43,701 bases of DNA from an uncultured Ignavibacteriales bacterium (GTDB lineage Bacteria > Zixibacteria > MSB-5A5 > GN15 > FEB-12). Below the pieces are notes generated by a model. That model searched no databases. It saw only the letters and a program-made list of their open reading frames with translations, and was not told the origin of the DNA. Shown piece after piece: positions 1-18,566 of the stretch. Each line of letters starts with the position of its first letter. Position 1 is the stretch's first letter. A program made the translations under genes and the position numbers. Location of the stretch: contig CAYXJN010000006.1 of assembly GCA_964464605.1 (NCBI GenBank), positions 275,981 to 319,681 on the forward strand. The letters are read 5' to 3'.

Positions 1-1
1 G

Positions 2-2186: not shown

Positions 2187-2306
2187 GCAATCCGACCTGC
2201 AAGAGAAGTCACATTTTTTCACTCCAAAGTACACGCCGTTTTGACCGGATTTGTGGATAACCGACTGGTCGAACTCCCACCAGAAAATACTATTGATAGA
2301 CATTTG

Positions 2307-2319
2307 TAATCGTTTGATT
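2307..2319 (-). promoter_or_regulatory. Candidate IHF-type binding site
   Basis: Reverse strand AATCAAACGATTA matches WATCAANNNNTTR, in an AT-rich patch about 80 bp upstream of a sigma54-like promoter. Confidence 0.35.
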
Positions 2320-2399
2320 TATAATTGATTACCATGAGCCACTTCAAGCATCACCTCGCTTCTGATGTGTCCAAATCTGTCACGCGCTACCGCGAGTCA

Positions 2400-2415
2400 G
2401 GGCACAGACTTTGCT
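2400..2415 (+). promoter_or_regulatory. Candidate sigma54 (-24/-12) promoter
   Basis: GGGCAC-AGACT-TTGCT versus consensus TGGCAC-N5-TTGCW; exact GG-N10-GC spacing; about 50 nt before ATG 2466. Confidence 0.6.
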
Positions 2416-2465
2416 TACCAGTCGATGGGTTAACATGCCCATTGAAAAGGAGTTACGAAAGCGCG

Positions 2466-4766
2466 ATGAGCATAGGAAGCAAGTCGAGGGTGCTTCGGTT
2501 TTTAGGGTATCTGGCAGTCCTCAGTCTTTTGGTCATTATCATCCCCCAAAAATCACAGGGTGCAGTTTCGGTAGTACCGAATTCATTCCAGCCCGATACC
2601 GTCTTTCGGGAGTTTCCATATACACTGAGCTTTACCGCGGTTTCGGACGTACCGCTCGGCAGTGTCGACAGTGCTTTTGCTGTTATTCAGGTATTACGCT
2701 CATCGGATAGCCTTATCATTGGCACCCTTTTCAATAGTTCGGTAACCCATACATCTCTCTCCGGCGATACCCTTCGCTATACCGGTCTTTCTCCGCAATC
2801 GATCAGTTGGCCGTCATCCGGCACCTACGCCGTTCGCTGCAACTATACGTTACATTCGGGCGATAGCGCCTATACCATCGATACGATTCTTACTTCTGCC
2901 CTTTCAGTCATGGCTCCGATAGCGATCACGTATCAAACAGGTACGCTGACGCCGACAACCGTTGAGCCGGGAACCCAGCGTTCATTCTCGTTCGATGTTA
3001 TCTCGCAAGCACCGTATGCGCTCTTGGTTGATAAATCGCAATCATCGCTTTTCTTGAACGGAACATCCTTTATCGATACAGCAGCGCTTTCATTTAACTA
3101 CGACTCCCTCTTGCCGGCTTTACAAACGTTCACGACCGCGAACGTAACATTTCCCGGCGGCTTACCGAATGATTCGTTAACCACTTCAGCCACAATTGCT
3201 GTCATACCGGCGGCGTTGGCGGGGCAGGTTGTTACACCATACCAGTACCTGCTTTCGTTCGGTTCGGCAAAAGTTGCCGTTGAAACAGTTCCGGACGTCA
3301 CGGTGCAGATTGTCAGTCTGGCGGTTGAATCACCCAATTCACCGAAAGTAAATACCGGACAACAATTCGTTATCCACGCCAAAGTAGCGAACCGCTCTAA
3401 TTTTCCGATCGGCCCGATAAGTTTCGAACTGACCAGCGACGGGCAATCATCGTTTACCGAAAAAGCGGTCGTGCAGTTTATCGCCGCGAATGCTGAGGCA
3501 GATTTGGCAATCGATGTCACCGCCGATCTGTTCCCCAGCAATGGAGAGATATTCCGTTTGTCGGTTGCATCCCCGGATGTCGTCGTGCTTCCTGCTATCG
3601 ATGATATCGCCTTTATCATTATCGAGCAGCCTGCCAATCTTAAATTCACCGCCTCATTGTTTGGCGCACCGACAGGAGTAGTCGGGTATGGACAGGCATT
3701 CAGCGTCAACATCAGCCTCGCCAACATCGGTGATGCCGATGCCTTTGAAACGACATACTTATTGACGACAGGGGATATCAGTCTCGGAACGCCGGATAGT
3801 ATCGGCGGTTCTATTCAACCCGGGCAAAATATTACGTTTAATTTCCGCGCCCCTGCTTTAGATACGCAGACGGTGATCATCATAAAATTGCTGTCGCACC
3901 CGATAGACGCTAACAGCGGTGAACCGGCGCCGCTTGATTTCGACAGTTTGTCTTTCGCTATTACTATTCGCGCCCCCGGTGGTGAATTGCTCATTGAACC
4001 GGAGAAAACATCATACAGTGTACTTACACCGGGACAACTAACCGATATGTTTTCACTGATGGTCACCAACCGGGTGACGGTATCAAGTGCGCGAATCCGT
4101 CTGTTGACCATGACCGTCGACTTCGGACCGATTGGCAACAAAGAAATCGATCCCGCTGAGTTTATCGATTGGACCGTTTCCGGAATTTATCGAAACGATA
4201 TCTTGATATCGGTGCCAACACCTTCAGGTACTCGCGTCATTATGGCGCTTGACGGCGTCTCGCTCAGCCCGCAGGAAAGTACGACCTTGGTTATCAAACT
4301 GAAGTTAAAGCCGAACGCACCAAGCCAGTTTACCTTTTTACAGGCGCTTTCCGATGTGTTAGCGATTTTAGTCGAAGGTTCCACCAGCCGTCAGGCGCAG
4401 GTAGTTACCTCGATGCCCAGTACGTTCCTGTTTTCTGAATCCTACGCAGTCGTCGGGAAAACACTTGAATCATCATTTATTATCAATACCAACCCGTATG
4501 ATCCCACAAACGGTGAAGCCCTGTTTGCCTATCAACTCGAGTCGGCCACAGAAATTCTCTTCAAGCTCTACTCGATTACGGGAGAGATAGTGCTTGAAAA
4601 GCGTTACCCCGAAGGGGACAACCACACCAGCGCGGGAAGCCATGTGATCGAGTGGGATGGCAAAAACGGGGAAGGGGATATTGTCTTAAACGGCGTGTAT
4701 ATCGCCGTTATTACTAATATCTCAAGCGGTGAATCGGCCCGCATAAAAGTGGCGGTGGTACGATGA
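2466..4766 (+). CDS. Secreted beta-rich protein with tandem Ig-like/CARDB-like domains and a C-terminal FlgD-Ig/T9SS-like sorting domain
   Basis: Start moved from 2325 to ATG 2466 (AAGGAG upstream, signal-peptide-like segment follows). S/T/V-rich body. C-terminus NPYDP...LYSITGEIV...WDGKNGEGDIVLNGVYIA...KVAVVR. Confidence 0.75.
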   Translation: MSIGSKSRVLRFLGYLAVLSLLVIIIPQKSQGAVSVVPNSFQPDTVFREFPYTLSFTAVSDVPLGSVDSAFAVIQVLRSSDSLIIGTLFNSSVTHTSLSGDTLRYTGLSPQSISWPSSGTYAVRCNYTLHSGDSAYTIDTILTSALSVMAPIAITYQTGTLTPTTVEPGTQRSFSFDVISQAPYALLVDKSQSSLFLNGTSFIDTAALSFNYDSLLPALQTFTTANVTFPGGLPNDSLTTSATIAVIPAALAGQVVTPYQYLLSFGSAKVAVETVPDVTVQIVSLAVESPNSPKVNTGQQFVIHAKVANRSNFPIGPISFELTSDGQSSFTEKAVVQFIAANAEADLAIDVTADLFPSNGEIFRLSVASPDVVVLPAIDDIAFIIIEQPANLKFTASLFGAPTGVVGYGQAFSVNISLANIGDADAFETTYLLTTGDISLGTPDSIGGSIQPGQNITFNFRAPALDTQTVIIIKLLSHPIDANSGEPAPLDFDSLSFAITIRAPGGELLIEPEKTSYSVLTPGQLTDMFSLMVTNRVTVSSARIRLLTMTVDFGPIGNKEIDPAEFIDWTVSGIYRNDILISVPTPSGTRVIMALDGVSLSPQESTTLVIKLKLKPNAPSQFTFLQALSDVLAILVEGSTSRQAQVVTSMPSTFLFSESYAVVGKTLESSFIINTNPYDPTNGEALFAYQLESATEILFKLYSITGEIVLEKRYPEGDNHTSAGSHVIEWDGKNGEGDIVLNGVYIAVITNISSGESARIKVAVVR

Positions 4767-6589
4767 AACAGACGTTCTGCATCTTTATGCTTCTGCTTGC
4801 CGTGTGTGCGAACTTGCTTGCCTCACAGGATGCTGGTCAGGAATCTCCGTTTGCTGTCGGCGTGGGAGCCCGTGCCCTGGGTATGGGGGGAGGGTTTACT
4901 TCCCTTGCTGATGATGCTACCGCCGTTTACTACAACCCGGCCGGTTTGCAAAGTCTGCCGTACCAGCAATTTTCATTTATGCATATGCGGTTGTTTGAAG
5001 GCACAACGCTCAACTATGCCACGTGGGCGTTGCCGACCCTTAGCTACGGCGGTTTGGGAATCAGCTATACCAGAATCGGTACCGATGATTTGATTCGCCG
5101 TTCCGATTTTATCGAAACCGGCACCTTCAGCTACGCACAGTCGCAATTCCAATTTTCCTACGGACAAAATCTCTTTTCCCGTGTTAACGTAGGCGCCTCG
5201 CTCAAAGTCATTCGCCAGACTATCGATAATTTTGCGGATAACGGCATCGGACTTGATGCTGGCGTGCTCATCCCGATCTACAAAGAGTTTCGCTTCTCCG
5301 CGGTCGTTCGAAACGCCATTCAGGCGACCCTGCGTTTAAGATCTACCGATGAAAAACTCCCGCTTAACGTTATCAGCGGATTTGGCTTACGTGAGATCCG
5401 TTTGAATAAGCAATTCATGTTCAGTGGTGCGGTTGAAGCTGAAAAATGGGAAAAGCGCTCCTTTAAATTCCACGCCGGCGGTGAACTGATTATCGATAGC
5501 ATGTATGCGTTGCGCACCGGATACGACCGGGATAACTTTACCTTCGGGGCCGGATTCAAGTATCACCGTGTCTCTATTGACTATGCCTACAAGCTCGTTG
5601 ACGATCTTGAAGACAGTCACCGTTTCTCCTTGTCGATAGCGGTGGGAACATCGATAAAAGATCAGGAACGGCGCCGAGAAATTGTCCGTCAGCAGGAAGG
5701 CAGCAAGCTGATCGCCGGTGACCGCAAACGGCAGTTTGAATTTTTCCGCACGCGCGCCGAAAGTTACTATCAACAGTTCGAATTGGATTCGGCGCTGCAA
5801 AATTATGAACGTGCGCTCGCTTTTGATCCGGATAATCAGGAGATTGTCGGAACGATTGCCGCTATTCAGGATGCGTTAGAAACTAAGCGGGTTCGCGAAC
5901 AGCAGATTGCCGAAACGGCCAGAGATCAGGAGAAGTCGGTTATTAATCTGCTGGGACAGGCGGAGTCTTTGTTTAAACGGGAAGAATACGGCGCGGCACG
6001 CGATGTTATCCGGCAACTGGAAGAGATCCAGCCGGGCAATGACGATGCCCGAAAGCTTCGTTCGCAAATAGACAATGCCATTCAGGAGCGAATAGCAACC
6101 GCAACGCAAAAGGCGCAGGAAGCAAATGCCAATGGCGATTTACTCGCCGCTATAGAGGAATATAGCCAGATACTGTTCTTGGATTCCGCAAACGCCTCCG
6201 TTCGCAGTGCCCGACAATTGGCGGTCGACAAGCTGAATCGCGCGCAGTTGCTGAATAACGGACTCGATCTCTACAAGTTAGGACAGTACGACGAATCCCG
6301 TGAGCGATTCAAGCGCCTTTTGGCGATAGATGCCGGTAACCCGGTTGCTATCGAGTATATCAGTAAGATAGACCGGGCGCTTGCCAAACCGCCGACGCTT
6401 GAAGAGTTGCAGCAGGATAAAGAAATCTGGCCGTTCTATCTGGAAGGCTTGCGTTTTATGCGCGAAAAGGATTACAAGCGGGCAATAGAGATGTGGGAAA
6501 AGGTACTCGAGAAGTATCCGAACAATCCGAACACGCTTGATAATATCGAACAGGCACGTCTTCGCTTGCAGTCTGAAGGAGGAAAATAA
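4763..6589 (+). CDS. PorV/PorQ (UPF0164)-like outer-membrane beta-barrel fused to a C-terminal TPR region
   Basis: Signal peptide, GARALGMGG...DDATAVYYNPAGL family signature, alternating beta strands ending IDYAY...SHRFSL, then helical TPR repeats; ATGA overlap with upstream gene. Confidence 0.8.
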   Translation: MKQTFCIFMLLLAVCANLLASQDAGQESPFAVGVGARALGMGGGFTSLADDATAVYYNPAGLQSLPYQQFSFMHMRLFEGTTLNYATWALPTLSYGGLGISYTRIGTDDLIRRSDFIETGTFSYAQSQFQFSYGQNLFSRVNVGASLKVIRQTIDNFADNGIGLDAGVLIPIYKEFRFSAVVRNAIQATLRLRSTDEKLPLNVISGFGLREIRLNKQFMFSGAVEAEKWEKRSFKFHAGGELIIDSMYALRTGYDRDNFTFGAGFKYHRVSIDYAYKLVDDLEDSHRFSLSIAVGTSIKDQERRREIVRQQEGSKLIAGDRKRQFEFFRTRAESYYQQFELDSALQNYERALAFDPDNQEIVGTIAAIQDALETKRVREQQIAETARDQEKSVINLLGQAESLFKREEYGAARDVIRQLEEIQPGNDDARKLRSQIDNAIQERIATATQKAQEANANGDLLAAIEEYSQILFLDSANASVRSARQLAVDKLNRAQLLNNGLDLYKLGQYDESRERFKRLLAIDAGNPVAIEYISKIDRALAKPPTLEELQQDKEIWPFYLEGLRFMREKDYKRAIEMWEKVLEKYPNNPNTLDNIEQARLRLQSEGGK

Positions 6590-6591
6590 CT

Positions 6592-6618
6592 TCATGCTGC
6601 CCGCGCTTTTGCCGATGC
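6592..6618 (+). promoter_or_regulatory. Candidate sigma28-family promoter 1
   Basis: TCAT-N15-GCCGATGC in the 37-bp gap before the kinase/phosphatase gene. Confidence 0.45.
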
Positions 6619-6626
6619 TTTCATAG

Positions 6627-8675
6627 ATGGGGTCTATGTTCCAGCGCTCAGTGAAGGAAGTCAACGCGGAGTATCCCGCTGAAGACCGCTTTTTAGACAG
6701 TATTCAGCGAACAGTACGTGATACCTGTGTCGCAGCCGGTATGTCCCGCAAGGAAGCATCCGCAGTTCTGCTTGCAGTTGAAGAGGGAGCGACGAATATC
6801 ATTCGCCACGCATACCTGTATTCCAAGGGCACCATCCGCGTCCGTCTTGTTGTCTATGCAAACCAGATCGTTATTTCTCTTTTTGATACCGGCCGTTCCT
6901 TTCAGCCGGATATGTCCTCGCCGATTAATTTAGACCGCTTGGTTGAGTCAGGCCGCAAGGGAGGGCTTGGTTTTTACATGATGCGCAAGATCATGGATTC
7001 GGTGGAGTATATCAGCACCGCCGATTTCAACGAACTACGCATGATCAAGCGGCTGCAAAAACCGAAAGATGCCGCGCTGCCTTTGTTCAGCCGCTTCTCA
7101 ACGCTGCGCGCCAAGTTTTCACTATTCACGTTTCTTGTCGTGTTGGTCATCGTCGGCGGTTCCTACTACTACATTGACCGTCGCACCCGCTCGCTGCTGG
7201 GAGAACGGCTTGAGCAAACCGTCATTGCTCTGGCGAACACGGTAGCGGATCAGGCCGCCGGATATATGATTAACAGCCGCTCCGACGTGGAATTCGATGA
7301 ACTAATCGTTTCCTATCTTCGCGCCAATCCGGAATTGCGCTCGGTCATTATTGTCGATTCGACTTCATTGATCGTCGCTCACTCGCAGGATATTCGCAAT
7401 ATTCGCAAACCGCTCATTGTTCCCCGGCAGCTCAATCCGAATATCCGCAACATGGCGCAGGTTTTCGATTCCGGACAGCAGGTGTTCAACTATCTCATCG
7501 TGCCGGTCAACGCCGGCCTTCGTGAGATGGGAGAGGTGCATATTGTCTATTCAACCGGACTCATTACCGAAGAAATCGCCGAACAGCGCAGCCGGGTTGT
7601 TTATCTCACTTTACTTTGGTTGGGTGTCGGTATCGTTTCGATTTATTTGCTCTCTAATTATTTCGTCGGCCCGATTGCCCGCATTACCGGGCGAATTCGC
7701 CGCTTTGCTTCCGGTGACATGGAAACCGAACTGCCGCTTGAAGGAGCTGAAGAGTTTTTTGAAATTTCAAAAGCCTTCAATGAAATGATGACCCGTGTCA
7801 ATCAGGACCGAAAAACTATCGCCGCCCGTGAAAAGATGGCCAAAGAGGTTGAAGTCGCGTCCCATATTCAAAAAACACTGCTTCCATCCAAGCTCCCTAA
7901 CATCACGGGGCTCGATGTCGACGCCTATTACCGGGCGGCATCGATTGTCGGCGGCGATTTGTACGATATTTTCCAGATCGGCCCGTCCCGGTATTGTATG
8001 ACGGTTGCCGATGTCTCCGGAAAAGGGGTGCCGGCATCGTTAGTTATGTCGATGCTTCGCACCGTTATCCAGATTCAAGCGGAGGGGAGTGAATCGGCCC
8101 GCGATATTTTAGTAAAAGTTAACAGTTATATTGAGCGCAATATCCCGCCCGGCATGTTCGTGACGGTGTTGATGATCGTTTACGATTCCGAACACTCGCA
8201 CCTGTCTTGTGTTTCCGCCGGTCATACGCCGCTGTTATTTTATCGGGTAGCGACGCGAAGTTTGGCACAAATCAATCCGGCAGGTATGCCTATTGGTATG
8301 CCGGTTACGCTGGGTGAAGGATTCGCCGGAAAACTGGAGGAATTCACAGCTATTTTGGAAGAGGGGGATCTGTTCTTTGCTTTTACCGACGGTGTAACCG
8401 AAGCGGGTAACCGCGCCGGAGAACAATATGGCCTGAATCGGCTGGAAGCATTTTTCAAAAAATACTTGTCGGAACAAAAAGAAGTGAATGCGAACATGCT
8501 CAGTATCGAATTATTGAAAGATATTGATGCCTTTACCGGCTCTGCCAATCCCGCTGATGATTTGACGTTCATTGTCGCCAGTCGCACCGAGCATCGCACT
8601 GCAAAAACGCCGGAAAAAGCATCGCTCGATTTGCCGGTTATTCAGGTTCCGGAGCAAAAAACTGAGGCTGAATAA
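6627..8675 (+). CDS. Membrane protein: RsbW-like HATPase Ser kinase - TM - periplasmic sensor - TM - HAMP - SpoIIE/PP2C phosphatase
   Basis: Kinase motifs LAVEEGATNIIRHAY, DTG, GGLGFYMM; two hydrophobic segments; HAMP (PIARIT...EISKAFNEM); PP2C motifs VGGDLYD, VADVSGKG, SAGH, FTDGVTE, DDLT. Start may be ATG 6636. Confidence 0.9.
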   Translation: MGSMFQRSVKEVNAEYPAEDRFLDSIQRTVRDTCVAAGMSRKEASAVLLAVEEGATNIIRHAYLYSKGTIRVRLVVYANQIVISLFDTGRSFQPDMSSPINLDRLVESGRKGGLGFYMMRKIMDSVEYISTADFNELRMIKRLQKPKDAALPLFSRFSTLRAKFSLFTFLVVLVIVGGSYYYIDRRTRSLLGERLEQTVIALANTVADQAAGYMINSRSDVEFDELIVSYLRANPELRSVIIVDSTSLIVAHSQDIRNIRKPLIVPRQLNPNIRNMAQVFDSGQQVFNYLIVPVNAGLREMGEVHIVYSTGLITEEIAEQRSRVVYLTLLWLGVGIVSIYLLSNYFVGPIARITGRIRRFASGDMETELPLEGAEEFFEISKAFNEMMTRVNQDRKTIAAREKMAKEVEVASHIQKTLLPSKLPNITGLDVDAYYRAASIVGGDLYDIFQIGPSRYCMTVADVSGKGVPASLVMSMLRTVIQIQAEGSESARDILVKVNSYIERNIPPGMFVTVLMIVYDSEHSHLSCVSAGHTPLLFYRVATRSLAQINPAGMPIGMPVTLGEGFAGKLEEFTAILEEGDLFFAFTDGVTEAGNRAGEQYGLNRLEAFFKKYLSEQKEVNANMLSIELLKDIDAFTGSANPADDLTFIVASRTEHRTAKTPEKASLDLPVIQVPEQKTEAE

Positions 8676-8698
8676 CCGTTTCTTTTTTCCAATTTTTC

Positions 8699-8727
8699 TT
8701 GCCTTGTCAGATAACGTTACGTATTTT
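8699..8727 (+). promoter_or_regulatory. Candidate sigma70 promoter for the STAS gene
   Basis: TTGCCT-N17-TATTTT in the AT-rich intergenic gap. Confidence 0.3.
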
Positions 8728-8765
8728 TTTACTATAGCACGTATAGTGTGAGGGAATTTTTCATC

Positions 8766-9152
8766 GTGGATAACATCAGTATATCTCTGTCTGAAGGAAA
8801 TCAGGAAGACGTCTCGGAAATCCGGGTCGATGGCGTTATTGATACTATCACCGCCAGCGAACTTGAGCAAGTTATCGATTCCCTGATGCGCCGTCAGCGC
8901 TACAAAATTCTCATAGACTTAGCCGGAGTCGATTATATCTCTTCGGCGGGGTGGGGAATTTTTATTTCGCACATCAAAGATGTCCGTGCCAATCGCGGCG
9001 ATATCAAGCTGGCCAATATGATTCCGAATGTTCGCGAGATATACCAGTTGCTTGAATTCGATAATGTTTTGAAAAGTTACGGTTCAATTGATGATGCCCG
9101 CCGGGATTTCGGCGGTTCCGAAAAAGTTGAGCAAAAAAAAAAGAACCGATAG
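8766..9152 (+). CDS. STAS-domain anti-sigma-factor antagonist (RsbV/SpoIIAA-like), 128 aa
   Basis: RVDGVIDT, IDLAGVDYISSAGWG (phosphoacceptor Ser motif), GDIKLAN; GTG 8766 follows SD GAGGGA. Confidence 0.9.
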   Translation: MDNISISLSEGNQEDVSEIRVDGVIDTITASELEQVIDSLMRRQRYKILIDLAGVDYISSAGWGIFISHIKDVRANRGDIKLANMIPNVREIYQLLEFDNVLKSYGSIDDARRDFGGSEKVEQKKKNR

Positions 9153-9436
9153 TAAGTAATGTCACGCTCATGGAACCGGTAATGGCTCCGTCATACTCCC
9201 ATTCACAGACTATCCTGCAAACGCCGGCAACGGTGTATCAGGCGGCATCGTTCGAAGACGCGGTCCTGCGATTGGTAAAACATGACCCGTTTGCCACTAT
9301 CGGAGAACTGGCCGATGAACTCTCGCAGTCCGGTCAGTATGAAAAGACAGGCTGGTGGCCGGTTTTTTTGGTTCTCCGCCGTCACAGTCTTGTAAGAAAG
9401 AGGTCCCGGTTCAATTTCGCCCGGGGGCGACGGTAG
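9131..9436 (+). CDS. Helix-turn-helix-like domain, probably expressed as a -1 extension of the STAS protein rather than from ATG 9170
   Basis: The -1 frame is open from 9131 to TAG 9434-9436; no SD before ATG 9170 or 9182; FEDAVLRLVKHDPFATIGELADEL...VFLVLRRHSL resembles a three-helix HTH. Confidence 0.6.
   Translation, partial: AKKKEPIVSNVTLMEPVMAPSYSHSQTILQTPATVYQAASFEDAVLRLVKHDPFATIGELADELSQSGQYEKTGWWPVFLVLRRHSLVRKRSRFNFARGRR
9133..9143 (+). other. Slippery site: A10 run ending in in-frame A_AAA_AAG
   Basis: Frame-0 codons CAA AAA AAA AAG AAC CGA TAG; heptamer 9137-9143 is in correct phase for -1 tandem slippage. Confidence 0.6.
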
Positions 9437-9450
9437 TAAAACGATATGGT

Positions 9451-9477
9451 TCAGAACACGGCTTCTGACGCCGATAC
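9451..9477 (+). promoter_or_regulatory. Candidate sigma28-family promoter 2
   Basis: TCAG-N15-GCCGATAC upstream of the GGDEF gene. Confidence 0.5.
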
Positions 9478-9498
9478 GAACGGCGTACGGGGCAATGT

Positions 9499-11112
9499 AT
9501 GCAGTTAACAGCGGTCGCGCTTATCATCGCTATTTTAGCCGGGGCATCGGCATTAGTCTGGCTGTTCTACTACACCTGGAAACAACGGGAAGCTGCCTTA
9601 CATGCGGAACCGTTACCGCAGCTATTACGACGCGGCACACAGGGAAGGAATACCGCGCAAGTAATACCGGAATTTTCCGCTTTGCTGGTTTCTGCGCTTT
9701 CATTGGACCAGCTCTGGTATTTCGAGTTCCGAAAAGAACAGCTCATACTCAGACACAGCCATTCCGGAAAATCGGGAACCGAATTTCCCGAATGGAAAAC
9801 ATCCAAAGCATTAGAAGAACTGCTTGATGCCGAATATGATCTATTCCCGGTCGATGCATTGACGCCCCATATTTCAGAAAATTTCAAAGATTCGATTCGC
9901 ACAAAAAATATCAGCTGGTGGCTTCCGGTATTTTCCGAAGGGACAGTTCATGGTCTTTTTTTGCTGCCGCTTACTTCTTTACCGCAGGACGCGCCCAAAC
10001 GTCAAGCATCGCTGATTGCGCAGTTGTTATCCCTTGTCTATCGGGCGGAAGCAGTCCCGCCTGTTAAAACCGCAACCTCACCGGATGATAGACGGGTGGT
10101 GGCTTCAACCAGACAGCCGCTTGAAATGGGTGATTCGTTAACACCGAATATGTTCAAGCTCGCTCTCAGGCGCGGCCCTGAATCAGTGGTTCCGGTGCTT
10201 ATTAATACCTTGAAAAAGGATTTAGGGGTGGAACAGCTTTCATTGTTGTTCGAGCATGAAAATAAAGAACGAGTCTGGAACAACAGCGGCGATTCCGATG
10301 CCGTTTCGAATCAGATGCTGCTGCCGCGTATTCTTGGCGCGCTTTCGAAATCACAGCAGGGTGCAAACATCTCCGAATTATCCAGGCGGGACCCGGAGCT
10401 TTCCGGCTGGGTGAATGAGATGAACAAACAGGGGTATAGCTGGGCAGTACCATTTTCAATCAGCCAGGAACAGAAGGGTGTGCTATTAGGCAGCGATACG
10501 CCGTCAGTCGCGGGAGCGCAGGAGCGTTTTAGCCGCGCGGCCGGACAAGCCGCGCATATTGTCGAAGTCGCCGAGTATTCACGTCAGCTGCATGAAATGT
10601 CCTATACCGATGCGCTTACGGGTCTGGCGAATCATCGCTATTTGATGCGCCGTCTTGACGAAGAAATCAGCCGCGCCCGCCGCTATCGCCGTCAGTTAGC
10701 CTTGATCATGTTCGATGTCGATGACCTGAAATCGATGAACGACGCTAACGGGCACCTTGCCGGAGACGAACTGCTCAAGCAGATTGCCGCCAAAGTTCGC
10801 AACTGTATCCGGGGAATTGATCTTTTGGCCCGGTACGGTGGGGATGAATTTTGTATTGTCATGCCGGAAGCGGACGAGCAGACTTGCTATCGCTTTATGG
10901 AGCGGCTTCACCGGGATTTAGCGGTAACCGCAATCCAAGTCGAGGGTGTTGCCAATCCGTACCCAGCCTCTATCTCTCAAGGTGGGGCGATTTTCCCCAC
11001 CGCCGGCGAGGATAGCCGGACGCTCTTGCATCATGCCGATATGGCGATGATTAAGGCAAAAAATGCCGGTCGAAACTCCTATTTGCTCTATTCGGCCGAT
11101 TTACACGCGTAA
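9499..11112 (+). CDS. Membrane-anchored diguanylate cyclase with degenerate GAF-like region
   Basis: N-terminal TM; TDALTGLAN, DVDDLKSMND..GH..GD, intact RYGGDEF with RxxD I-site (RGID). Confidence 0.9.
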   Translation: MQLTAVALIIAILAGASALVWLFYYTWKQREAALHAEPLPQLLRRGTQGRNTAQVIPEFSALLVSALSLDQLWYFEFRKEQLILRHSHSGKSGTEFPEWKTSKALEELLDAEYDLFPVDALTPHISENFKDSIRTKNISWWLPVFSEGTVHGLFLLPLTSLPQDAPKRQASLIAQLLSLVYRAEAVPPVKTATSPDDRRVVASTRQPLEMGDSLTPNMFKLALRRGPESVVPVLINTLKKDLGVEQLSLLFEHENKERVWNNSGDSDAVSNQMLLPRILGALSKSQQGANISELSRRDPELSGWVNEMNKQGYSWAVPFSISQEQKGVLLGSDTPSVAGAQERFSRAAGQAAHIVEVAEYSRQLHEMSYTDALTGLANHRYLMRRLDEEISRARRYRRQLALIMFDVDDLKSMNDANGHLAGDELLKQIAAKVRNCIRGIDLLARYGGDEFCIVMPEADEQTCYRFMERLHRDLAVTAIQVEGVANPYPASISQGGAIFPTAGEDSRTLLHHADMAMIKAKNAGRNSYLLYSADLHA

Positions 11113-11164
11113 GAGCATTTTTTAACCTTTACACTCAGTCCGACGTATCATTTACTATGGTAAG

Positions 11165-11191
11165 TAACGTGTTTTCAAAATATGCCGATTT
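11165..11191 (+). promoter_or_regulatory. Candidate sigma28-family promoter 3
   Basis: TAAC-N15-GCCGATTT upstream of the polysaccharide export gene. Confidence 0.45.
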
Positions 11192-11223
11192 AGTATAAAC
11201 CTATTGGAGGATTGCGGTTAGCC

Positions 11224-12195
11224 ATGAAAGTGCACATACGTCTGTTAGTTCTTTTCAGCCTCTGTATGGCTGTTTGCCTTTTGTCCGGCTCTCTGTTGGC
11301 TCAAACTGACGGATACAAAATCGGTCCGGAGGATGTGCTTGAGGTAAAGTTCTGGCAAGAGAAGGAACTCAACAGCACCGTCCGTGTAAATACTGATGGA
11401 AAAATCAGTCTTGATATCGTCGGTACGTTGGATGCCGCCGGCAAAACCGTGGAAGAATTGGAAAATCTGATCGTTCGTCAAATGTCCCGCTTAAACCGGA
11501 ATGTCTCACAGGTAGTCGTCCGGGTTGTTGCCTATAACTATCAGGCGGTCTTCGTTACCGGTCAGGTGAAAACACCCGGGAAGAAAACATTCGAAGTCAT
11601 TCCCGATCTCTGGACTATTATCAACGAAGCGGGTGGTGTTGCCGAAACCGGTGATTTAAGCCGTGTGACGATTATTCGCGGCGGGGAAGATGCCGGTCAG
11701 GTGGAACAGGTAAACGTATCTAAAGCAATTTCCGAAGGAAAAATAAACAAACTCCCCAAAGTCCGCCGTTTGGATACAATCGAAATTCCAAGAACGCCGG
11801 GCGGATTGCCCTCTGCTAATCTGGGTGCTCCGGTAGAACAGCGGAATATTATTTACGCCATTGGCGCCGTGAATGTTCCGGGCGAGAAATCATTCGAAGA
11901 AAATATCGACATCATGGAAGCACTTGCCAAAGCAGGCGGCCCGACGACCAACGCGGATTTAAAACGGGTACAGATTATCACCAAGGATGGCGCCTACGCG
12001 CAGTCGCTGACACTGAACCTCGAAAAATATGCCAAAACCGGAACCCCGGCCCGCTACATCATGCGCAAGGAAGACACCTTTGTCGTGCCGGAGAAAAAGT
12101 CCGGATTTTTGGGACTGGGAACTGCCAGCACCGTATTAGGTTTGATAACCTCGTCGTTGCTTATTTACACAACCGTAGACCAGATTAGAAATTAA
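11224..12195 (+). CDS. Polysaccharide export protein (Wza/OPX-like; Poly_export plus SLBB domains)
   Basis: YKIGPEDVLEV...DGKISLDIVG..AAGKT, VTGQVKTPG, ALAKAGG; signal peptide; GGAGGA upstream of ATG 11224. Confidence 0.9.
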   Translation: MKVHIRLLVLFSLCMAVCLLSGSLLAQTDGYKIGPEDVLEVKFWQEKELNSTVRVNTDGKISLDIVGTLDAAGKTVEELENLIVRQMSRLNRNVSQVVVRVVAYNYQAVFVTGQVKTPGKKTFEVIPDLWTIINEAGGVAETGDLSRVTIIRGGEDAGQVEQVNVSKAISEGKINKLPKVRRLDTIEIPRTPGGLPSANLGAPVEQRNIIYAIGAVNVPGEKSFEENIDIMEALAKAGGPTTNADLKRVQIITKDGAYAQSLTLNLEKYAKTGTPARYIMRKEDTFVVPEKKSGFLGLGTASTVLGLITSSLLIYTTVDQIRN

Positions 12196-12205
12196 TACAC
12201 GAAAT

Positions 12206-13720
12206 ATGTCCGCACCGTCACCGCATCATCCCAAAGCAGTCGATATCCGCGATGTCATCGCCGTCATTGTCAGGAGAAAATGGCTTCTCATTCTTCCGCT
12301 GATATTGGTTGCCGGTGTTGCCTATGGTATTACCTATATGCTGACGCCGTTATATCGCTCTTGGACTATTGTCTGGATCGATAAACCGAGCAACGTCTCG
12401 CAGGAATTGGCTCGTATTATTGGAACCGATCGGTATGAACGGGATAGCCGGGAGGACCGAGCGCGGCAGTTACAGGCGCTGCAGAACAAAGTTACCTCGC
12501 AAGCGTATCTTATCCATCTTATTCGTGATCTCAAACTCGACAGCGATCCGGAAATTATCAAAGCGGCTGCCCAGATGCGGGAAGGGAACAACAATGTTCC
12601 GCTCGATGATCTCAAACTGGGACTGCTTCGGGATAAATTAAAAGACTGCATTGATGTTCAGTTTGTCGGGACGGATCAGATTCAGCTGATGGTCGAATGG
12701 GATGATGCCCAGCTGGCCAAAGATATGGTAACGCGTTTAGCCGGAATTTTGGAGCAGGAAGAATCCCGCAACGAACTCGACCGTATTTTGGGAAATCAGG
12801 ATTTTGCGGATAACCAGTTAAGCGAGGCGGAATTCAATTACAAACAGGCGCTCGACTCCTTGACCAACGCTAAAACGCAACTGACCCGGATGACTTTACC
12901 GGAAAATATCTCCTCAGAATCGAACCGCCGGGATATCACCGCCGATATCGATCGCACCAATTTGGAGATTCAGGATTACCAGCAGGAACTCTCCAAATTA
13001 GAAGCACAGCTTTCCTCGCTCGACTTGGACCGCACACGGTTGAAATTCTCCGATTCTCTCGTTGCCCTTCGCGCCGAAATCGACGGACAGGTGGTGAGCG
13101 TTTCCGAAATGATGGAGCGCTACGCCTGGAACGAACAAAACGTCATTAACGTCAATATCCGTTTGAACACGAACGTTCGCCTGTTGGAAGAAGAGATTAC
13201 CCATGCCGTCGACCAGCAGTTTGCCGCCTATCCCGAAAATCAGCGGAAGCTTTTAGCCCGCTATTTCGTGGTGCATGAAAATATCGACATCTTGAATTCA
13301 AAAGTAGGACAACTACAGTTGTCGTCTCAAAAAATTAATTCCCGAATCAACCAGATTCCGCGTATTCAGGCGCAGGTGGATGAACTTAACCGCCGCGTGG
13401 AGGATCTGCGAAAATACAAAGATGCTTTCCAGGCAGAAGAAACAACGGTTGGTATTTTGTCCGAGCGCGTTAAAGAACGGACTCGCTACAAAGTAATCGA
13501 ACCGGCGCAGATTCCGCTTGCTCCCTATTTCCCTGATCGCAAAAAAATCGTTTTCATGGGCGTACTGCTTGGTCTTGTTATCGGCGGTGGCGTACTCTTG
13601 TTAGTCGAAATCATGGATAATTCATTCAAGCGGGTTGAAGATATCGAAGCCGCCACACAACTCCGTGTTTTGGCGGCAATTCCTAAAATTGAAGCATTGT
13701 CGGTAACGAGTCGAAAATAA
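12206..13720 (+). CDS. Polysaccharide co-polymerase/chain-length determinant (Wzz/GumC, Wzc N-terminal-like)
   Basis: DIRDVIAVIVRRKW plus TM, long coiled coil, VIEPAQIP..P..P, second TM, LRVLAAIP kinase-activating tail. Confidence 0.88.
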   Translation: MSAPSPHHPKAVDIRDVIAVIVRRKWLLILPLILVAGVAYGITYMLTPLYRSWTIVWIDKPSNVSQELARIIGTDRYERDSREDRARQLQALQNKVTSQAYLIHLIRDLKLDSDPEIIKAAAQMREGNNNVPLDDLKLGLLRDKLKDCIDVQFVGTDQIQLMVEWDDAQLAKDMVTRLAGILEQEESRNELDRILGNQDFADNQLSEAEFNYKQALDSLTNAKTQLTRMTLPENISSESNRRDITADIDRTNLEIQDYQQELSKLEAQLSSLDLDRTRLKFSDSLVALRAEIDGQVVSVSEMMERYAWNEQNVINVNIRLNTNVRLLEEEITHAVDQQFAAYPENQRKLLARYFVVHENIDILNSKVGQLQLSSQKINSRINQIPRIQAQVDELNRRVEDLRKYKDAFQAEETTVGILSERVKERTRYKVIEPAQIPLAPYFPDRKKIVFMGVLLGLVIGGGVLLLVEIMDNSFKRVEDIEAATQLRVLAAIPKIEALSVTSRK

Positions 13721-13725
13721 GCAGT

Positions 13726-14847
13726 ATGGAAACCTACCGACTGAATAGCCGTCTGCAGGATCGCGGAAGTGAATTCGTGATTCAAACGATCAATGACCCG
13801 GACAGCGGAGCCGTCACCTCGGCAATCTTCGTGAACGGCGCGCTTTGTGAATCCTCGCGCTACCCTCACCCGACTGAAATTAATCCCGAAGAAGTCATGT
13901 CGTTGGTCAAGATCAAGCATCTGGAAAAAAAACAGGAACTTGAAGCCCTGATTGCCGCAGCACGCAACGTACTCCTGACCAAAAATGTCGAATCGATGTG
14001 CCAGCTCGGAACCGCCTTCTTTTATAAGTCACTCTATACCCAGGCCAAGGAATTGTTCATGGCCGCAATAACAGCAGATTCCGAATGCCATCAGGGATAT
14101 CATTATCTTGGCCAGACTGAACTGGCAATGGGAGATGTGAAAGCCGCGGTTGATGCCGGTGTGCTGGCGATTCGCAAGCGTCCCGGTTACGCCGATTACC
14201 ACAATGCGCTTGGTGAAGCGTATATGGCAGCGGGACATTTCCGCCAAGCCGTCGAAGGATTCGAAGAGGCGATTCGCATCAATCTCTATTACAGCGACGC
14301 CTATTTCAATCTTGGTCTTGCAATGCTTTCCGGCGTGACGGATGAACGTGACCCCGCTTTTTTCTCCAATGCCGTAAGCAAAGCGATGGATTCCTTCCAG
14401 AAAGCGGCTTTGATTTATCCGGAATACAATAATAGAAACTTCGAAGACGGCATTCAGGCGATCCGAACCTCCGCCGCACGGGAAGCTTTGCAGATGATGA
14501 AAACCGTACGGGAAGAAAAACGGGAACGCCGCCGTAATGAGTTTGCGCCGTTTCATATGCGCTTTGTCTTATCGCCCGAATGGATTTCCGACGAAGCGTT
14601 GACCGAACGCATTCAATACTTGCAGTCGCAATTGTCACGAAACCCCACCTATGTCGACTTGCATGCCGAATTAGCCCGCTGCTATCTGGAGCAGGCGAAA
14701 ATTTTCTGGGGGAAAGGTGTGCAGCAATTAAAGCGTACGCTGGAAGTGAACCCGGCGTTGACCAAAACCAGAATTGCCCAGGAAGCCACCGAACGTGAGT
14801 ATGAAACAATGTGCTCGGTGCTTTCACGAATCGTAGAAAAAGGATAA
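13726..14847 (+). CDS. Cytoplasmic TPR protein with an unassigned N-terminal alpha/beta domain
   Basis: Multiple TPRs (YADYHNALGEAY, YSDAYFNLGLA, YVDLHAELARCY); no signal peptide. Confidence 0.75.
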   Translation: METYRLNSRLQDRGSEFVIQTINDPDSGAVTSAIFVNGALCESSRYPHPTEINPEEVMSLVKIKHLEKKQELEALIAAARNVLLTKNVESMCQLGTAFFYKSLYTQAKELFMAAITADSECHQGYHYLGQTELAMGDVKAAVDAGVLAIRKRPGYADYHNALGEAYMAAGHFRQAVEGFEEAIRINLYYSDAYFNLGLAMLSGVTDERDPAFFSNAVSKAMDSFQKAALIYPEYNNRNFEDGIQAIRTSAAREALQMMKTVREEKRERRRNEFAPFHMRFVLSPEWISDEALTERIQYLQSQLSRNPTYVDLHAELARCYLEQAKIFWGKGVQQLKRTLEVNPALTKTRIAQEATEREYETMCSVLSRIVEKG

Positions 14848-14852
14848 ATTGC

Positions 14853-15659
14853 GTGAGCCGTCGCGAAATACCTATTACTGATGTTTTCAATCCGGAAGAC
14901 CCGTACACTACCGAGTTTCGCCGTTTGCTAAATCGCGTCTCCGGCAAAAATGCGACCAGCGATATCAAAACGCTGATGCTCACATCGGCGATGCTGTCTG
15001 AAGGAAAGTCCACTATCGCCGCCTTTTTGGCGATGACCGCCGCGCGGAACAAAAATCTGAAAACGCTTTTGATCGATTGCGATATTCGCCGTCCCACTAT
15101 GCACAAACTGTTCGCCATCCAGCGTGAACGGGGAGTGAGCGATGTATTGCTTGAAGGGATGACGCTCAAAGATGCCGTCCGCAAAAGCAATATGGACAAA
15201 CTCGATCTGATGACCGCCGGACGCGCCGTGCCGAATCCGACCGATGTGTTCGATGCCGACGGTATCAGCAAGATGCTCGATGAACTGAAATTCTATTATG
15301 ACCTGATTATTCTTGATTCCGCCCCGGTGCTGCCGGTCTCGGACCCGATGCTTTTAGGCGCAAAAGTTGACGGCATTTTGTTGGTCGTCAAAGCCGGTGT
15401 TACGCAAAAGGAGATCGTCCAGCGCTCACTTGAAATTATGGGAGGCAGCCGGGATAAATTTCTGGGGATCGTCATGAACAATGTCGATCATTCGCTTCCG
15501 TATTACTATGATTATGGGTATTACGGCTATGAATACCGTGACAATACCAGGCCGCCCAAAGGGCAGGATAAAAAAGGGAATCCACAGCCGGGTAAAAAAC
15601 CGGAATCATCTGGCGGCATGAACAGCCAACACGGCGCTAATCCGGCCCGCAAGGGATAA
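14853..15659 (+). CDS. CpsD/CapB-family BY tyrosine kinase
   Basis: SAMLSEGKST Walker A, LIDCDIRRP, IILDSAP, tyrosine cluster YYYDYGYYGYEY; GTG 14853 after AAGGA. Confidence 0.92.
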   Translation: MSRREIPITDVFNPEDPYTTEFRRLLNRVSGKNATSDIKTLMLTSAMLSEGKSTIAAFLAMTAARNKNLKTLLIDCDIRRPTMHKLFAIQRERGVSDVLLEGMTLKDAVRKSNMDKLDLMTAGRAVPNPTDVFDADGISKMLDELKFYYDLIILDSAPVLPVSDPMLLGAKVDGILLVVKAGVTQKEIVQRSLEIMGGSRDKFLGIVMNNVDHSLPYYYDYGYYGYEYRDNTRPPKGQDKKGNPQPGKKPESSGGMNSQHGANPARKG

Positions 15660-15686
15660 ACCGGCTCGTGTCGGGTACCGTTATCT

Positions 15687-16553
15687 ATGCAGCCCGATCT
15701 CAACATTCTCACTGTTGATTTGGAAGAGTGGTATGTTGCCGAAGCGCTCACTGCGCTTTTGTCCCGTGATGAATGGGAGTCGCTTCCGTCCACTGTCGAA
15801 AAAAACACCCGCATTCTGCTTGATCTGTTTGACCACAAAAATGTCTCAGCGACTTTCTTTATTCTCGGCTGGTGTGCCGATCAACATCCGGAACTGATGC
15901 GTGAAATCGCGGATCGCGGCCATGAAATTGCCTGTCACAGTTATTATCACCGCCGCGTCAGTACCTTAAATGCCGAAGTCTTTCGGGAAGATACCGTCAA
16001 AGCGGTCACTGCGCTGGTGAATGCGACCGGAATAAAGCCGAAAGGGTACCGCGCCCCGAGTTGGTCGATGAACGACTCGACGCCGTGGGCCTTTCAAACT
16101 CTGGCGGAACTTGGTTTTGAATATGACAGCTCGATATTTCCGATCAAACATGACATCTACGGCATGCCGCACGGACCGCGCCACATGTTCCGCATGCAGT
16201 TCGATGAAAACAAAATTCTCTATGAAATCCCGGCTTCGACGATACGATTGATGGGGAAAAATCTCCCGATCGGCGGCGGCGGGTTTTTACGTCATTCCCC
16301 ATACTGGTACACTCGCCAACAGATCCGCAAGCTGAACAAAGCAGGGCATCCGGTGATTGTCTACATTCATCCATGGGAAGTAGACAACAATCCGCCGCGC
16401 GTTGACAATCTTTCGGCATTGCAAAAGTTTCGTTCCTACGGTTCGACTGCCCATGTCGTTTCCAAGCTAGCCCGGCTTTTGGATGACTTTGAATTCACGA
16501 CTATGCACACCTATATTCAACAGCACAGACGTGTACAAATCGGATTTCGTTAA
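15687..16553 (+). CDS. Polysaccharide deacetylase (CE4, DUF3473/PEP-CTERM-locus-associated type)
   Basis: TVDLEEW, ATFFILGW, GHEIACHSYYH, GYRAPSW, YDSS, PIGGGGFLR, YIHPWE. Confidence 0.88.
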   Translation: MQPDLNILTVDLEEWYVAEALTALLSRDEWESLPSTVEKNTRILLDLFDHKNVSATFFILGWCADQHPELMREIADRGHEIACHSYYHRRVSTLNAEVFREDTVKAVTALVNATGIKPKGYRAPSWSMNDSTPWAFQTLAELGFEYDSSIFPIKHDIYGMPHGPRHMFRMQFDENKILYEIPASTIRLMGKNLPIGGGGFLRHSPYWYTRQQIRKLNKAGHPVIVYIHPWEVDNNPPRVDNLSALQKFRSYGSTAHVVSKLARLLDDFEFTTMHTYIQQHRRVQIGFR

Positions 16554-16737
16554 GCCCTTGATTCTCTGGTAGTTTCCGTAAACAAAAAAACTTGACTTTG
16601 CATTGTTACGGGGCAAATTTGACTCCCGGTAAAGCTCATGAACGGCTATCCGCGCATGGCTTGATAAACGGCAATACACGTAGGACGTAATAGATGTTCT
16701 CTCGTTTGACGAGAGAAAAGAACTGCAAGGAGGACTT

Positions 16738-17277
16738 GTGAAATCAATCAAAGTATTAGCTGCTGCGGCATTAATGACCCTGGCAGTTGGTGCAACCACC
16801 AGCGCGGCAAAACTTGAAATTACACCGGCGGTCAATTTGTCATTGCCGATGGGAGATTTCGGTGATTTTGCCAAGCTTGGTTTTGGCGGTTCAGGCGCGC
16901 TTGATTACTTTGTCGCGCCGACCTTTTCAATCGGCGGACTGGTAAGCTATACGACATACAGCTCTGAGTTCGACGGCGTCGACGCAGTCGGCGTAATGGA
17001 ATTCGGCGGTCGCGGCCGTTATCATTTGGGACAGAACGTGGCCGAAGCATTTTTCCTTGAAGGAACGGCCGGTATTCACAGCTACAGCGGCAGCGGTGAC
17101 GGCAGTGATTTCGGTTTTGGTTTCGGCGCCGGCAAGCGTTTCCCGATGGGAGCCTCTGGTAAAACGACCTTAGTTCCCGAAGTACTGTACTACATTGTTC
17201 CGGGGGATGAAGCCGATGCGACCTTTATCATGTTCCGTTTAGGTCTGGCTTTCGGTGCTGGTTCTTCCGCTGAATAA
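16738..17277 (+). CDS. Small outer-membrane beta-barrel protein (OmpA-like transmembrane domain)
   Basis: Signal peptide, G/F-rich alternating strands, PMGDFGD..GFG; strong SD AAGGAGG. Confidence 0.8.
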   Translation: MKSIKVLAAAALMTLAVGATTSAAKLEITPAVNLSLPMGDFGDFAKLGFGGSGALDYFVAPTFSIGGLVSYTTYSSEFDGVDAVGVMEFGGRGRYHLGQNVAEAFFLEGTAGIHSYSGSGDGSDFGFGFGAGKRFPMGASGKTTLVPEVLYYIVPGDEADATFIMFRLGLAFGAGSSAE

Positions 17278-17300
17278 GCAAACGATGAACTGACGATGTC

Positions 17301-17332
17301 AACGCCGTTTCACAAGGAACGGCGTTTTTTTT
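17301..17332 (+). terminator. Intrinsic terminator
   Basis: AACGCCGTT / AACGGCGTT stem followed by T-run. Confidence 0.85.
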
Positions 17333-17444
17333 ATGTGCAGGAATACCATGTAGATAAGACAAAATTCTCGGGATTGCCGAGACCGTTTATGTGTATTATA
17401 TATGGAACATCGACATATGTAAGAAAGCAAAGGAGAAGTACTGT

Positions 17445-18164: not shown

Positions 18165-18206
18165 CAGCGAAACGCTGTTAGCCCGTTTTCATAAGGAGAA
18201 CATACC

Positions 18207-18566
18207 ATGTGGATCATACGAATTGTCCTGTTGGCCTTAGTCGTGGTCTGTTTCCTTGCTTTTATTACGTACAATATAGATACCAGCCAGAAAGTAGATA
18301 TCAATCTTATCTATGCAGCCTACCTTGATGTCCCGCTTATCACCGTCGTCTTCTGGTCATTTTTAGCCGGCGGGCTGGTGACACTGGCGCTGATGGTTGT
18401 CTCTTACCTAAAACTTTCCTTCGATTTGCAGGCGGCGAACCGGAAAATCAAAGCGCTCGAATCTGAAGCGGCAATTTTGCGTAACCGTCCGATTGAAGAA
18501 GCCGCCGGCTTGTTTACCCAGACATCGACAAGCGGTGATATCAGCCTGTTCGGAGACAGCAAATGA
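18207..18566 (+). CDS. lapA: LapA-family membrane protein
   Basis: Two TM helices around N...V.I.L...PL...F..G, C-terminal coiled coil; directly upstream of a LapB-like gene. Confidence 0.8.
   Translation: MWIIRIVLLALVVVCFLAFITYNIDTSQKVDINLIYAAYLDVPLITVVFWSFLAGGLVTLALMVVSYLKLSFDLQAANRKIKALESEAAILRNRPIEEAAGLFTQTSTSGDISLFGDSK

Follow-up and report, generated by a model that had tools for sequence, protein, structure and literature searches.

Why should a PorV-like outer-membrane barrel be encoded directly ahead of an inner-membrane protein that joins a serine kinase to a phosphatase? The question is raised by a locus in a Zixibacteria metagenome-assembled genome (MAG) of 18 contigs and 2.8 Mb; the window, by which we mean the whole 43,701-nucleotide stretch of DNA that was analysed, is C6:275981-319681, and homologues of its proteins carry the source label Candidatus Zixiibacteriota. 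A preliminary description of this DNA had proposed that positions 2400..16553 encode a surface protein held on the barrel, that tetratricopeptide repeats (TPRs) reach from the barrel across the periplasm to an inner-membrane sensor, and that phosphorylation of a STAS protein then sets cyclic di-GMP (c-di-GMP) and exopolysaccharide (EPS) output. Our analysis leads us to the view, held with slightly better than even confidence, that the locus is a conserved envelope-spanning signalling cassette of phyla of the Fibrobacteres-Chlorobi-Bacteroidetes (FCB) group. Judged by sequence comparison, its core is an immunoglobulin-like (Ig) repeat protein with a type IX secretion system (T9SS) tail, a barrel-TPR protein, a kinase/sensor/HAMP/PP2C protein, and a STAS protein with a small domain resembling a helix-turn-helix (HTH). 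In the window these parts are as follows.

2466..4766, + strand: g1, a protein with a signal peptide, about seven Ig-like beta-sandwich domains and a divergent T9SS type-A C-terminal domain (CTD; residues ~672-766).

4763..6589, + strand: g2, a barrel (residues ~1-295) followed by a C-terminal TPR arm (296-608) that is probably periplasmic; its first 4 nt are shared with the end of g1.

6627..8675, + strand: g3, an RsbW-type Ser kinase (17-141), a first transmembrane (TM) segment, a Cache-like periplasmic domain (185-324), a second TM segment, a HAMP domain (341-392) and a PP2C phosphatase (454-653).

8748..9152, + strand: g4, a STAS protein of the anti-sigma-antagonist type with the conserved motif DYISSAGWG, presumably the site of serine phosphorylation.

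9170..9436, + strand: g5, a small four-helix HTH-like domain with a basic tail, for which the HTH matches are sub-threshold only.

9133..9142, + strand: a run of ten As (A10) in the linker between the STAS and HTH-like domains, a candidate slippage site that would give a STAS-HTH fusion.

A full-length orthologue of g3 was found in every one of the 30 relatives from the order, and at the level of the phylum in 129 of the 151 genomes sampled. Gene order within the order carries little information, since synteny there extends over the entire neighbourhood from FolD to MutS. We compared the 20 kb around g3 in 40 genomes of 15 coded families; FolD and MutS are not retained as flanks at the 20 distant loci, of which 15 have g1, g2 and g3 side by side. 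Hidden Markov models (HMMs) of both halves of g2 placed a g2-type TPR open reading frame (ORF) directly upstream of g3 in 39 of the 40 loci: the TPR part was fused to a barrel in 34, encoded separately from the barrel as a second ORF in one (L037), and present alone in 4. Of the 151 genomes, 106 had both the TPR half and g3, 23 had g3 only, one had the TPR half only, at the end of a contig, and 21 had neither; a TPR match lay immediately upstream of g3 in 36 of 36 further pairs, which were compared by eye. At the four TPR-only loci, which belong to families f7 and f15, the TPR protein is 255-292 aa long as the ORF was called, carries a signal peptide, and is encoded by an ORF that overlaps the start of g3 in three of the four. 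A gene for a Big_5 Ig-like lipoprotein precedes the TPR gene there in place of g1. At these loci HrcA-GrpE-DnaK follow g3 instead of STAS, as checked in L053 and L066.

The same arrangement recurs under other phylum labels. Species-representative genomes were scanned with the g3 alignment, which gave 80 loci, and these were followed up with local HMM and tblastn searches. The order of a protein with the g1-type tail, barrel plus TPR, and g3 was found in nine records, labelled KSB1, Latescibacterota, Eisenbacteria, Omnitrophota, Calditrichota (three) and FCPU426, with one unlabelled; g3 identity in these was 26-33%. STAS follows in eight of the nine, and the KSB1 contig ends first. No barrel or TPR was found by the local HMM and tblastn searches beside g3 matches labelled Planctomycetota, Verrucomicrobiota or Firmicutes. 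The conserved core is thus a four-gene cassette, to which the cyclase and EPS genes would be a frequent Zixibacteria addition. Gene fusions support the partnerships within it: STAS and the g5 domain form one ORF (214-282 aa) in 21 of the 29 loci with a mapped STAS ORF, and at L078:3956-8218 and L081:3977-8383 a single ORF (1420-1468 aa) encodes both g3 and STAS, joining enzyme to substrate. The linkage proposed in the preliminary description is thus upheld by gene neighbourhood, the outer-membrane pair and the partner switch forming one conserved unit.

We used complex prediction to ask where the TPR arm and the sensor might meet. Residues 296-608 of g2 and 185-324 of g3 were modelled together, each with its own alignment, alongside three controls. 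The pair scored 0.66, 0.67 and 0.67, and the best of the three controls scored 0.00; in calibration, 116 of 157 solved complexes attained the mark used for this score, as did 2 of 215 mismatched pairs. The runs agreed in at least 96% of contacts, and the partner had a predicted local distance difference test (pLDDT) value of at least 84. The predicted contacts join g2 residues 546-598, which make up the last TPR unit, to g3 S219-D224 (motif SDVEFDE) and 256-260. These surfaces are the more conserved parts of both domains: conservation at the interface against the whole domain was 0.73 against 0.47 for g2 and 0.56 against 0.42 for g3 (on S219-D224), and on the g2 side N594 is invariant and Q597 and A598 are conserved at 0.95 or above. 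The barrel-less TPR proteins of f7 and f15 keep the same C-terminal TPR unit as the predicted g2 interface. The earlier proposal that the TPRs reach the periplasmic sensor thereby passes a controlled prediction, with contacts on the most conserved residues of both sides, and the model supports binding of the g2 arm to the g3 sensor; we know of no solved look-alike complex for this pair. A mirror-tree comparison over 23 taxa, made against the periplasmic domain of g3, gave r = 0.857 for the TPR part and r = 0.708 for the barrel, falling to 0.51 and 0.14 once the distance of cytoplasmic g3 was removed; we give these values no weight because they come with no significance test and the pairs are non-independent.

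The barrel that carries the arm belongs to a secretion family. g2 passes the PorV/PorQ family model NF033709 (116.8 bits against a cut-off of 90, residues 32-293) and falls below the equivalog cut-offs for PorV (NF033710, 24 against 250) and PorQ (NF033711, 72.9 against 220). By these scores it is a PorV/PorQ paralogue with an added TPR arm. Its family is about 608 aa long and is named PorV/PorQ by NCBI in Zixibacteria MAGs. The barrel HMM had 13 matches in the genome at E <= 1e-3, and the TPR arm is found on g2 only and on none of the 12 others.

The gene ahead of g2 encodes a candidate T9SS cargo. Its ORF is open from 2325, with a likely start at ATG 2466 followed by a Sec signal peptide (hydrophobic segment 7-30, ending QGA). 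The structure model of g1 is all-beta with pLDDT 87.4, and Foldseek searches with it returned generic tandem Ig/MG-domain proteins only. The secretion system itself is encoded in the genome, with SprA (563.6 bits) and PorU (711.7 bits) both over their cut-offs and 28 type-A CTD matches over the cut-off of TIGR04183. On its own, the g1 tail gives weak single-sequence matches (FlgD_ig at E 0.0025; the PorZ C-terminus at E 0.0017), and the g1 orthologue of L049 scores 20.3 against the cut-off of 23 for the CTD model. A profile of the g1-family tail (27 sequences) aligned with hhalign to 25 of the 28 genome CTDs at a probability of 99.5% and E 9.4e-23 over 74 columns. Because the profile-profile match is strong while g1 alone gives weak matches, we regard the tail as homologous to canonical CTDs but divergent.

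Several features link g1 to the barrel. The order of a CTD protein gene followed by a PorV-like barrel gene recurs in the genome on C9, on C3 and at PorU, and g1 is present at 34 of 35 barrel-bearing loci and at none of the four TPR-only loci. PorV anchors PorU, and PorQ anchors PorZ, at the cell surface of Porphyromonas gingivalis, as described in the part of PMC5562754 drawn on here. From this precedent and the co-occurrence of g1 with the barrel we infer that g1 may be retained at the surface on the g2 barrel. The protein is 766 aa long in the window and 848-1390 aa in 34 relatives, with a variable N-terminal part, and its identity of 19-32% is the lowest among the cassette genes; low identity and a variable N-terminus are as expected of an exposed protein. 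At G000:C4:13725-19683 the next gene after that of the PorU sortase is an ORF of 886 aa that includes a PorV-like barrel, a length uncommon for PorV.

On the cytoplasmic side, g3 has the parts of a partner switch. It matches HATPase_c_2 (77.7 bits against 27.4, residues 17-141), SpoIIE/PP2C (136.3 bits against 25, residues 454-653) and HAMP (35.4 bits), with hydrophobic segments at 157-184 and 323-347, and sCache_3_2 matches stay below the cut-off (20.4 and 24.8 against 28.4). An RsbW-type kinase and a PP2C phosphatase in one chain is the SypE arrangement. Domain scans found no REC domain in g3, which instead has two hydrophobic segments, the Cache-like domain and HAMP. Orthologues at L049, L050, L056-L058, L064, L065, L067 and L074 are 944-1041 aa long with a C-terminal HTH_28/HTH_23 extension, and in these distant Zixibacteria families a gene for a ParA/BcsQ-like ATPase lies between g3 and STAS (checked in L049).

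The putative substrate, g4, exceeds the cut-offs for STAS (PF01740, 57.9 bits against 22.6) and TIGR00377 (62.8 against 53.45). Residues S60 and S61 are at least 90% conserved (alignment A3), and the fold matches SpoIIAA/RsbV at E ~1e-8. The small domain downstream is harder to name. HTH_Tnp_Tc3_2 matched below threshold in 13 of 22 g5 family members (best E 3.5e-4); in the model of a fused orthologue the domain is a confident four-helix bundle with pLDDT above 90. Atlas searches with g5 gave only unnamed clusters at 0.91, a profile search of Protein Data Bank (PDB) sequences gave E ~0.5 or worse, and a Foldseek search with the STAS-HTH model mainly drew matches to its STAS half, so that structure comparison did not identify the small domain's fold.

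The A10 run between the two domains may decide which form of STAS is made. The -1 frame opens 2 nt before the run (9133-9142) and continues into g5, and the 0 frame stops three codons after it. Besides the window, all 15 STAS-bearing loci of families f1 and f4 have an A10 or A11 run, with the downstream domain out of frame in 8 and in frame in 7; among 14 STAS-bearing loci of other families, no run of eight or more As was found. In contigs of four studies the run is free of indels, a comparison in which rare length variants cannot show. We consider the run a candidate slippage site, giving STAS with and without the HTH-like domain.

What might the switch control? The genes that follow in the window suggest an answer.

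9499..11112, + strand: g6, a membrane-anchored diguanylate cyclase with an N-terminal TM segment, a cytoplasmic region of ~330 aa and a GGDEF domain.

11212..12195, + strand: g7, a Wza-type outer-membrane polysaccharide export protein (Poly_export, 70.8 bits, plus SLBB).

12206..13720, + strand: g8, a Wzz-type chain-length co-polymerase of the polysaccharide co-polymerase (PCP) class (Wzz, 27.8 bits against 25.5) with two TM segments.

13726..14847, + strand: g9, a TPR protein with no signal peptide, conserved between the PCP and the BY-kinase.

14811..15659, + strand: g10, a separate BY-kinase, a Wzc-type tyrosine autokinase (TIGR01007, 161.1 against 108.05).

15687..16553, + strand: g11, a polysaccharide deacetylase of the XrtA-system type (TIGR03006, 326.9 against 276.2).

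The GGDEF domain of g6 (PF00990, 151.8 bits against 23.8) has an intact GGDEF motif and an RxxD I-site (RGID-LLARY-GGDEF), as would be expected of an active cyclase. Pfam gave no match at E <= 1 in g6 residues 28-360 or in the N-terminal 100 aa of g9, and g8 is missing from about half of close relatives. The EPS genes g7-g11 are similar to XrtA-associated export genes; of the pepcterm_* equivalogs, however, only that of the deacetylase passed, while the export, chain-length and Tyr kinase models scored 106, 96.6 and 143 against cut-offs of 180, 278.85 and 230.65. Elsewhere in the genome there are three PEP-CTERM matches and, on C10, an exosortase (TIGR02602, 193.7 against 105.55), so the rest of an EPS system probably lies away from this locus; this had no bearing on the signalling question. 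GGDEF and Wza genes were each present in 30 of the 40 Zixibacteria loci, which makes them a frequent, not a universal, output, and in L067 the EPS block is inverted and still adjacent. Since STAS has an HTH-like domain of its own, c-di-GMP and EPS need not be its primary output. The proposal that STAS sets c-di-GMP/EPS output is to that extent weakened. Contact between STAS and the g6 cyclase is plausible by analogy, as the STAS protein HsbA of Pseudomonas aeruginosa interacts with the diguanylate cyclase HsbD, controlling biofilm and motility (from the part of PMC5085249 drawn on here). In a close relative (L048, G010:C1:1-17900), STAS, GGDEF and EPS genes were not present after g1-g2-g3; genes for an enoyl-CoA hydratase and a GNAT protein (on the other strand), a Na/H exchanger and an ABC ATPase follow there instead.

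These parts can be joined into a chain. g1 would be exported by the T9SS and probably kept at the surface by its uncleaved, divergent CTD on a dedicated barrel, g2, much as PorZ is on PorQ. The TPR arm would hang from the barrel into the periplasm, where its last and most conserved unit may dock on the acidic SDVEFDE motif of the g3 Cache-like domain. Coupled through HAMP, the kinase and PP2C of g3 would set the phosphorylation state of STAS by the logic of SypE/SypA. STAS may exist with or without the small HTH-like domain, the two forms being parted in the window by the slippage-prone A10 run, and unphosphorylated STAS may act on the neighbouring membrane diguanylate cyclase, on DNA or on both. 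Such action would raise c-di-GMP and Wza/Wzc-type EPS export. What the signal is (contact, ligand, cargo load or envelope stress), which way it travels and what it controls are points that we infer, and surface sensing as the signal is conjecture. The fuller proposal, an undescribed trans-envelope class of the FCB superphylum in which a T9SS-displayed Ig protein on its own barrel reports surface events (contact, ligand or cargo load) through a periplasmic TPR arm to a kinase/phosphatase that toggles a two-form STAS by A10 slippage, is one we put forward tentatively, with clearly less confidence than the cassette itself.

Several observations weigh against an envelope-spanning cassette. The related genomes are not independent samples, so the counts are descriptive. 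STAS follows g3 in 30 of the 40 loci and was not found beside it in the other 10, and GGDEF and Wza are each likewise absent from 10 of the 40. Both g1 and g2 are lacking in L057, g1 alone is lacking in L032, and L053, L054, L066 and L068 (f7 and f15) have neither the barrel nor g1. For the records under other phylum labels, the 4 kb compared mostly showed no GGDEF or EPS genes. Those labels are the submitters' own and can be wrong, because two 58%-identical records are labelled Ignavibacteriales. g1 alone gave no match to TIGR04183 or PF18962 at E <= 0.01 and is absent from the 28 CTD matches of the genome. The complex score is the model's own confidence and was calibrated with no custom alignments such as those used for this pair, and the sensor domain was modelled as a monomer although HAMP receptors are dimers. 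Finally, the Cache-like domain of g3 could bind a small ligand by itself.

This last point leads to the strongest alternative: g1 and g2 may be a biofilm adhesin and its anchor, merely co-transcribed with their regulator, with g3 sensing a small molecule through its Cache-like domain and the predicted TPR contact being wrong or only structural. A Cache-like fold, here below the cut-off, is typically a ligand binder; genes for adhesins, EPS and c-di-GMP are common co-regulated outputs; and L057 keeps g3, STAS, GGDEF and EPS with g1 and g2 absent. We nevertheless judge this unlikely, as the link between the TPR part and g3 (39 of 40) is tighter than that of g3 with GGDEF or EPS (30 of 40). That link also survives loss of the barrel in f7 and f15 and extends to other phylum labels, where EPS genes were mostly not seen nearby, and the controlled docking prediction passes on conserved residues.

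The same physical chain could also work in the other direction, with a cytoplasmic state relayed by the periplasmic domain of g3 to the TPR arm so as to govern retention or release of g1, and the membrane-anchored cyclase g6 stands beside the switch. Such control would resemble LapD/LapG/LapA logic. Pfam and NCBIfam scans found no recognisable c-di-GMP receptor domain in g3, however, the cassette encodes no periplasmic protease, and the cytoplasmic parts of g3 are enzymes acting on STAS, which fits a transducer working from outside to inside. Signalling from the inside out therefore seems to us improbable, and less credible than co-regulation of an adhesin.

We reject, as very improbable, a role for g2 in EPS export, as a porin or scaffold built of TPRs and a barrel like PgaA, BcsC, PelB and AlgK/AlgE, rather than as a signalling part: g2 does combine TPR and barrel in a run with EPS export genes, but it passes neither PgaA/BcsC-type model (TIGR03939, NF008520), the PgaA match covering the TPR part only at 33 bits against 366.65, its barrel is of the PorV/PorQ family and N-terminal to the TPRs, a Wza exporter is already present, and g2 persists with no EPS genes nearby in L051, L052, L061, L062 and most of the other-phylum records.

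How does an envelope-spanning cassette compare with known systems? The preliminary description had likened the locus to SiaABCD and to SypE/SypA; the second likeness stands, and SypE/SypA and HsbR/HsbA/HsbD are both closer than SiaABCD. In the part of PMC10120452 drawn on here, SypE of Vibrio fischeri has, like g3, an N-terminal RsbW-type kinase and a C-terminal PP2C in one chain with a single-domain STAS substrate, SypA, comparable to g4; the system as described there has no sigma factor, and the syp locus controls biofilm polysaccharide. The central domain of SypE is a cytoplasmic receiver fed by a phosphorelay, whereas the TM-Cache-like-TM-HAMP arrangement of g3 suggests a periplasmic input. 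Further differences are that the STAS protein of the cassette carries, or can acquire, an HTH-like domain, and that an outer-membrane barrel-TPR protein and a T9SS cargo precede g3. HsbR likewise joins PP2C and kinase behind a receiver domain; unlike the cassette, it is soluble and HptB-driven, with no membrane sensor or outer-membrane module. SiaABCD of P. aeruginosa shares with the cassette a membrane HAMP-PP2C phosphatase, a kinase, a switch protein, a diguanylate cyclase and the control of biofilm (parts of PMC7647112 and PMC8457831). Its kinase is a separate protein, whereas that of g3 is joined to PP2C, and the SiaA and SiaD equivalogs were far from reached (NF038263, 61.7 against 700; NF038266, 144.9 against 290). 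The switch protein of that system, SiaC, is not known to be a STAS protein.

The outer-membrane half has its own relatives. The pairs PorZ:PorQ and PorU:PorV resemble g1-g2 in that a T9SS-secreted protein is held by a PorV/PorQ-family barrel (part of PMC5562754), and here the CTD gene directly precedes the barrel gene. Unlike PorV and PorQ, g2 has a 313-residue TPR arm, and no role in cargo attachment is implied for it. PgaA, BcsC and PelB, too, have a TPR array in the periplasm and a barrel in the outer membrane on a single chain, near polysaccharide genes; their barrels are of a different family and the domain order is reversed, PgaA and BcsC running opposite to g2. A further parallel is the Rcs system of enterobacteria (RcsF-OMP-IgaA-RcsCDB), in which a surface-exposed sensor associated with an outer-membrane protein (OMP) barrel acts through an inner-membrane protein on capsule (parts of PMC7553776 and PMC5978795). 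Rcs shares no homologous component with the cassette: it signals through a His-Asp phosphorelay and a lipoprotein, where the cassette would employ a T9SS cargo, a barrel-fused TPR arm and phosphorylation of STAS on serine. Rcs is thus a described, non-homologous case of capsule control from the outer membrane. Partner switching and the T9SS are each well studied, but our literature search turned up no published link between them, and no paper in which PorV/T9SS terms occur together with either partner-switching terms or Zixibacteria. The cassette would thus be partner switching with an undescribed outer-membrane input, with signal, direction and output understood as set out above.

The genes g1-g12 probably form a single transcription unit, for which the following further features were noted.

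2297..2325, + strand: a promoter-like site, TAGACA-17-TATAAT, an 11/12 sigma-70-like match and the best in the region, ahead of g1.

16738..17277, + strand: g12, a small OMP_b-brl-like protein (27.3, just below the cut-off of 28.7), the last gene before the terminator.

17301..17326, + strand: a hairpin resembling an intrinsic terminator, with an 11-pair stem and a T-run, after g12 and the only strong one.

All 12 genes from the promoter-like site to the terminator are on the + strand, with intergenic gaps of -4 to 99 nt for g1-g11 and of -4 to 184 nt when g12 is counted. Because of the promoter-like site and the sole strong terminator, the unit probably extends from ~2297 to 17326, slightly past the end at 16553 first given for it. 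The promoter-like site is a consensus match, and the regional number of such sites is not above that in shuffles; terminator-like matches in 1-20000 numbered 27, against 23.3 +/- 5.0 in shuffles and so not above them, and within the run no + strand match has a stem of more than 7 pairs. Positions 2200-17400 were free of indels in contigs from four studies, some of which runs may themselves be the source of the window. The uninterrupted same-strand run 2400..16553 of the preliminary description is thus confirmed, with the first strong terminator only at 17301-17326, and Pfam and NCBIfam agree with all ten of its listed domain calls, the HTH of g5 at sub-threshold level only and the Ig-like nature of the secreted g1 at the level of fold. 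No counterpart of g12 was found in any of the 40 related loci. Elsewhere in the window, 30153-33146 encodes a second T9SS cargo (997 aa, BACON_2 plus Por_Secre_tail, 27.2 bits against 27), and 37060-39219 an M14 carboxypeptidase whose further domains are an InhA-like MAM and a type I dockerin.

If the envelope-spanning cassette is read correctly, PorV/PorQ paralogues can dock sensors and do not serve secretion alone; on the fuller proposal, the T9SS would supply sensors besides secreted cargo. The predicted contact would give a residue-level hypothesis for how an event at the outer membrane reaches a cytoplasmic switch based on Ser phosphorylation. For STAS proteins like SypA, the target of which is still being looked for in Vibrio according to the part of PMC10120452 drawn on here, the cassette suggests candidate downstream partners. 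A function would, moreover, be assigned to a cassette conserved in several uncultured phyla that are common in sludge and sediments, where control of biofilm and EPS matters.

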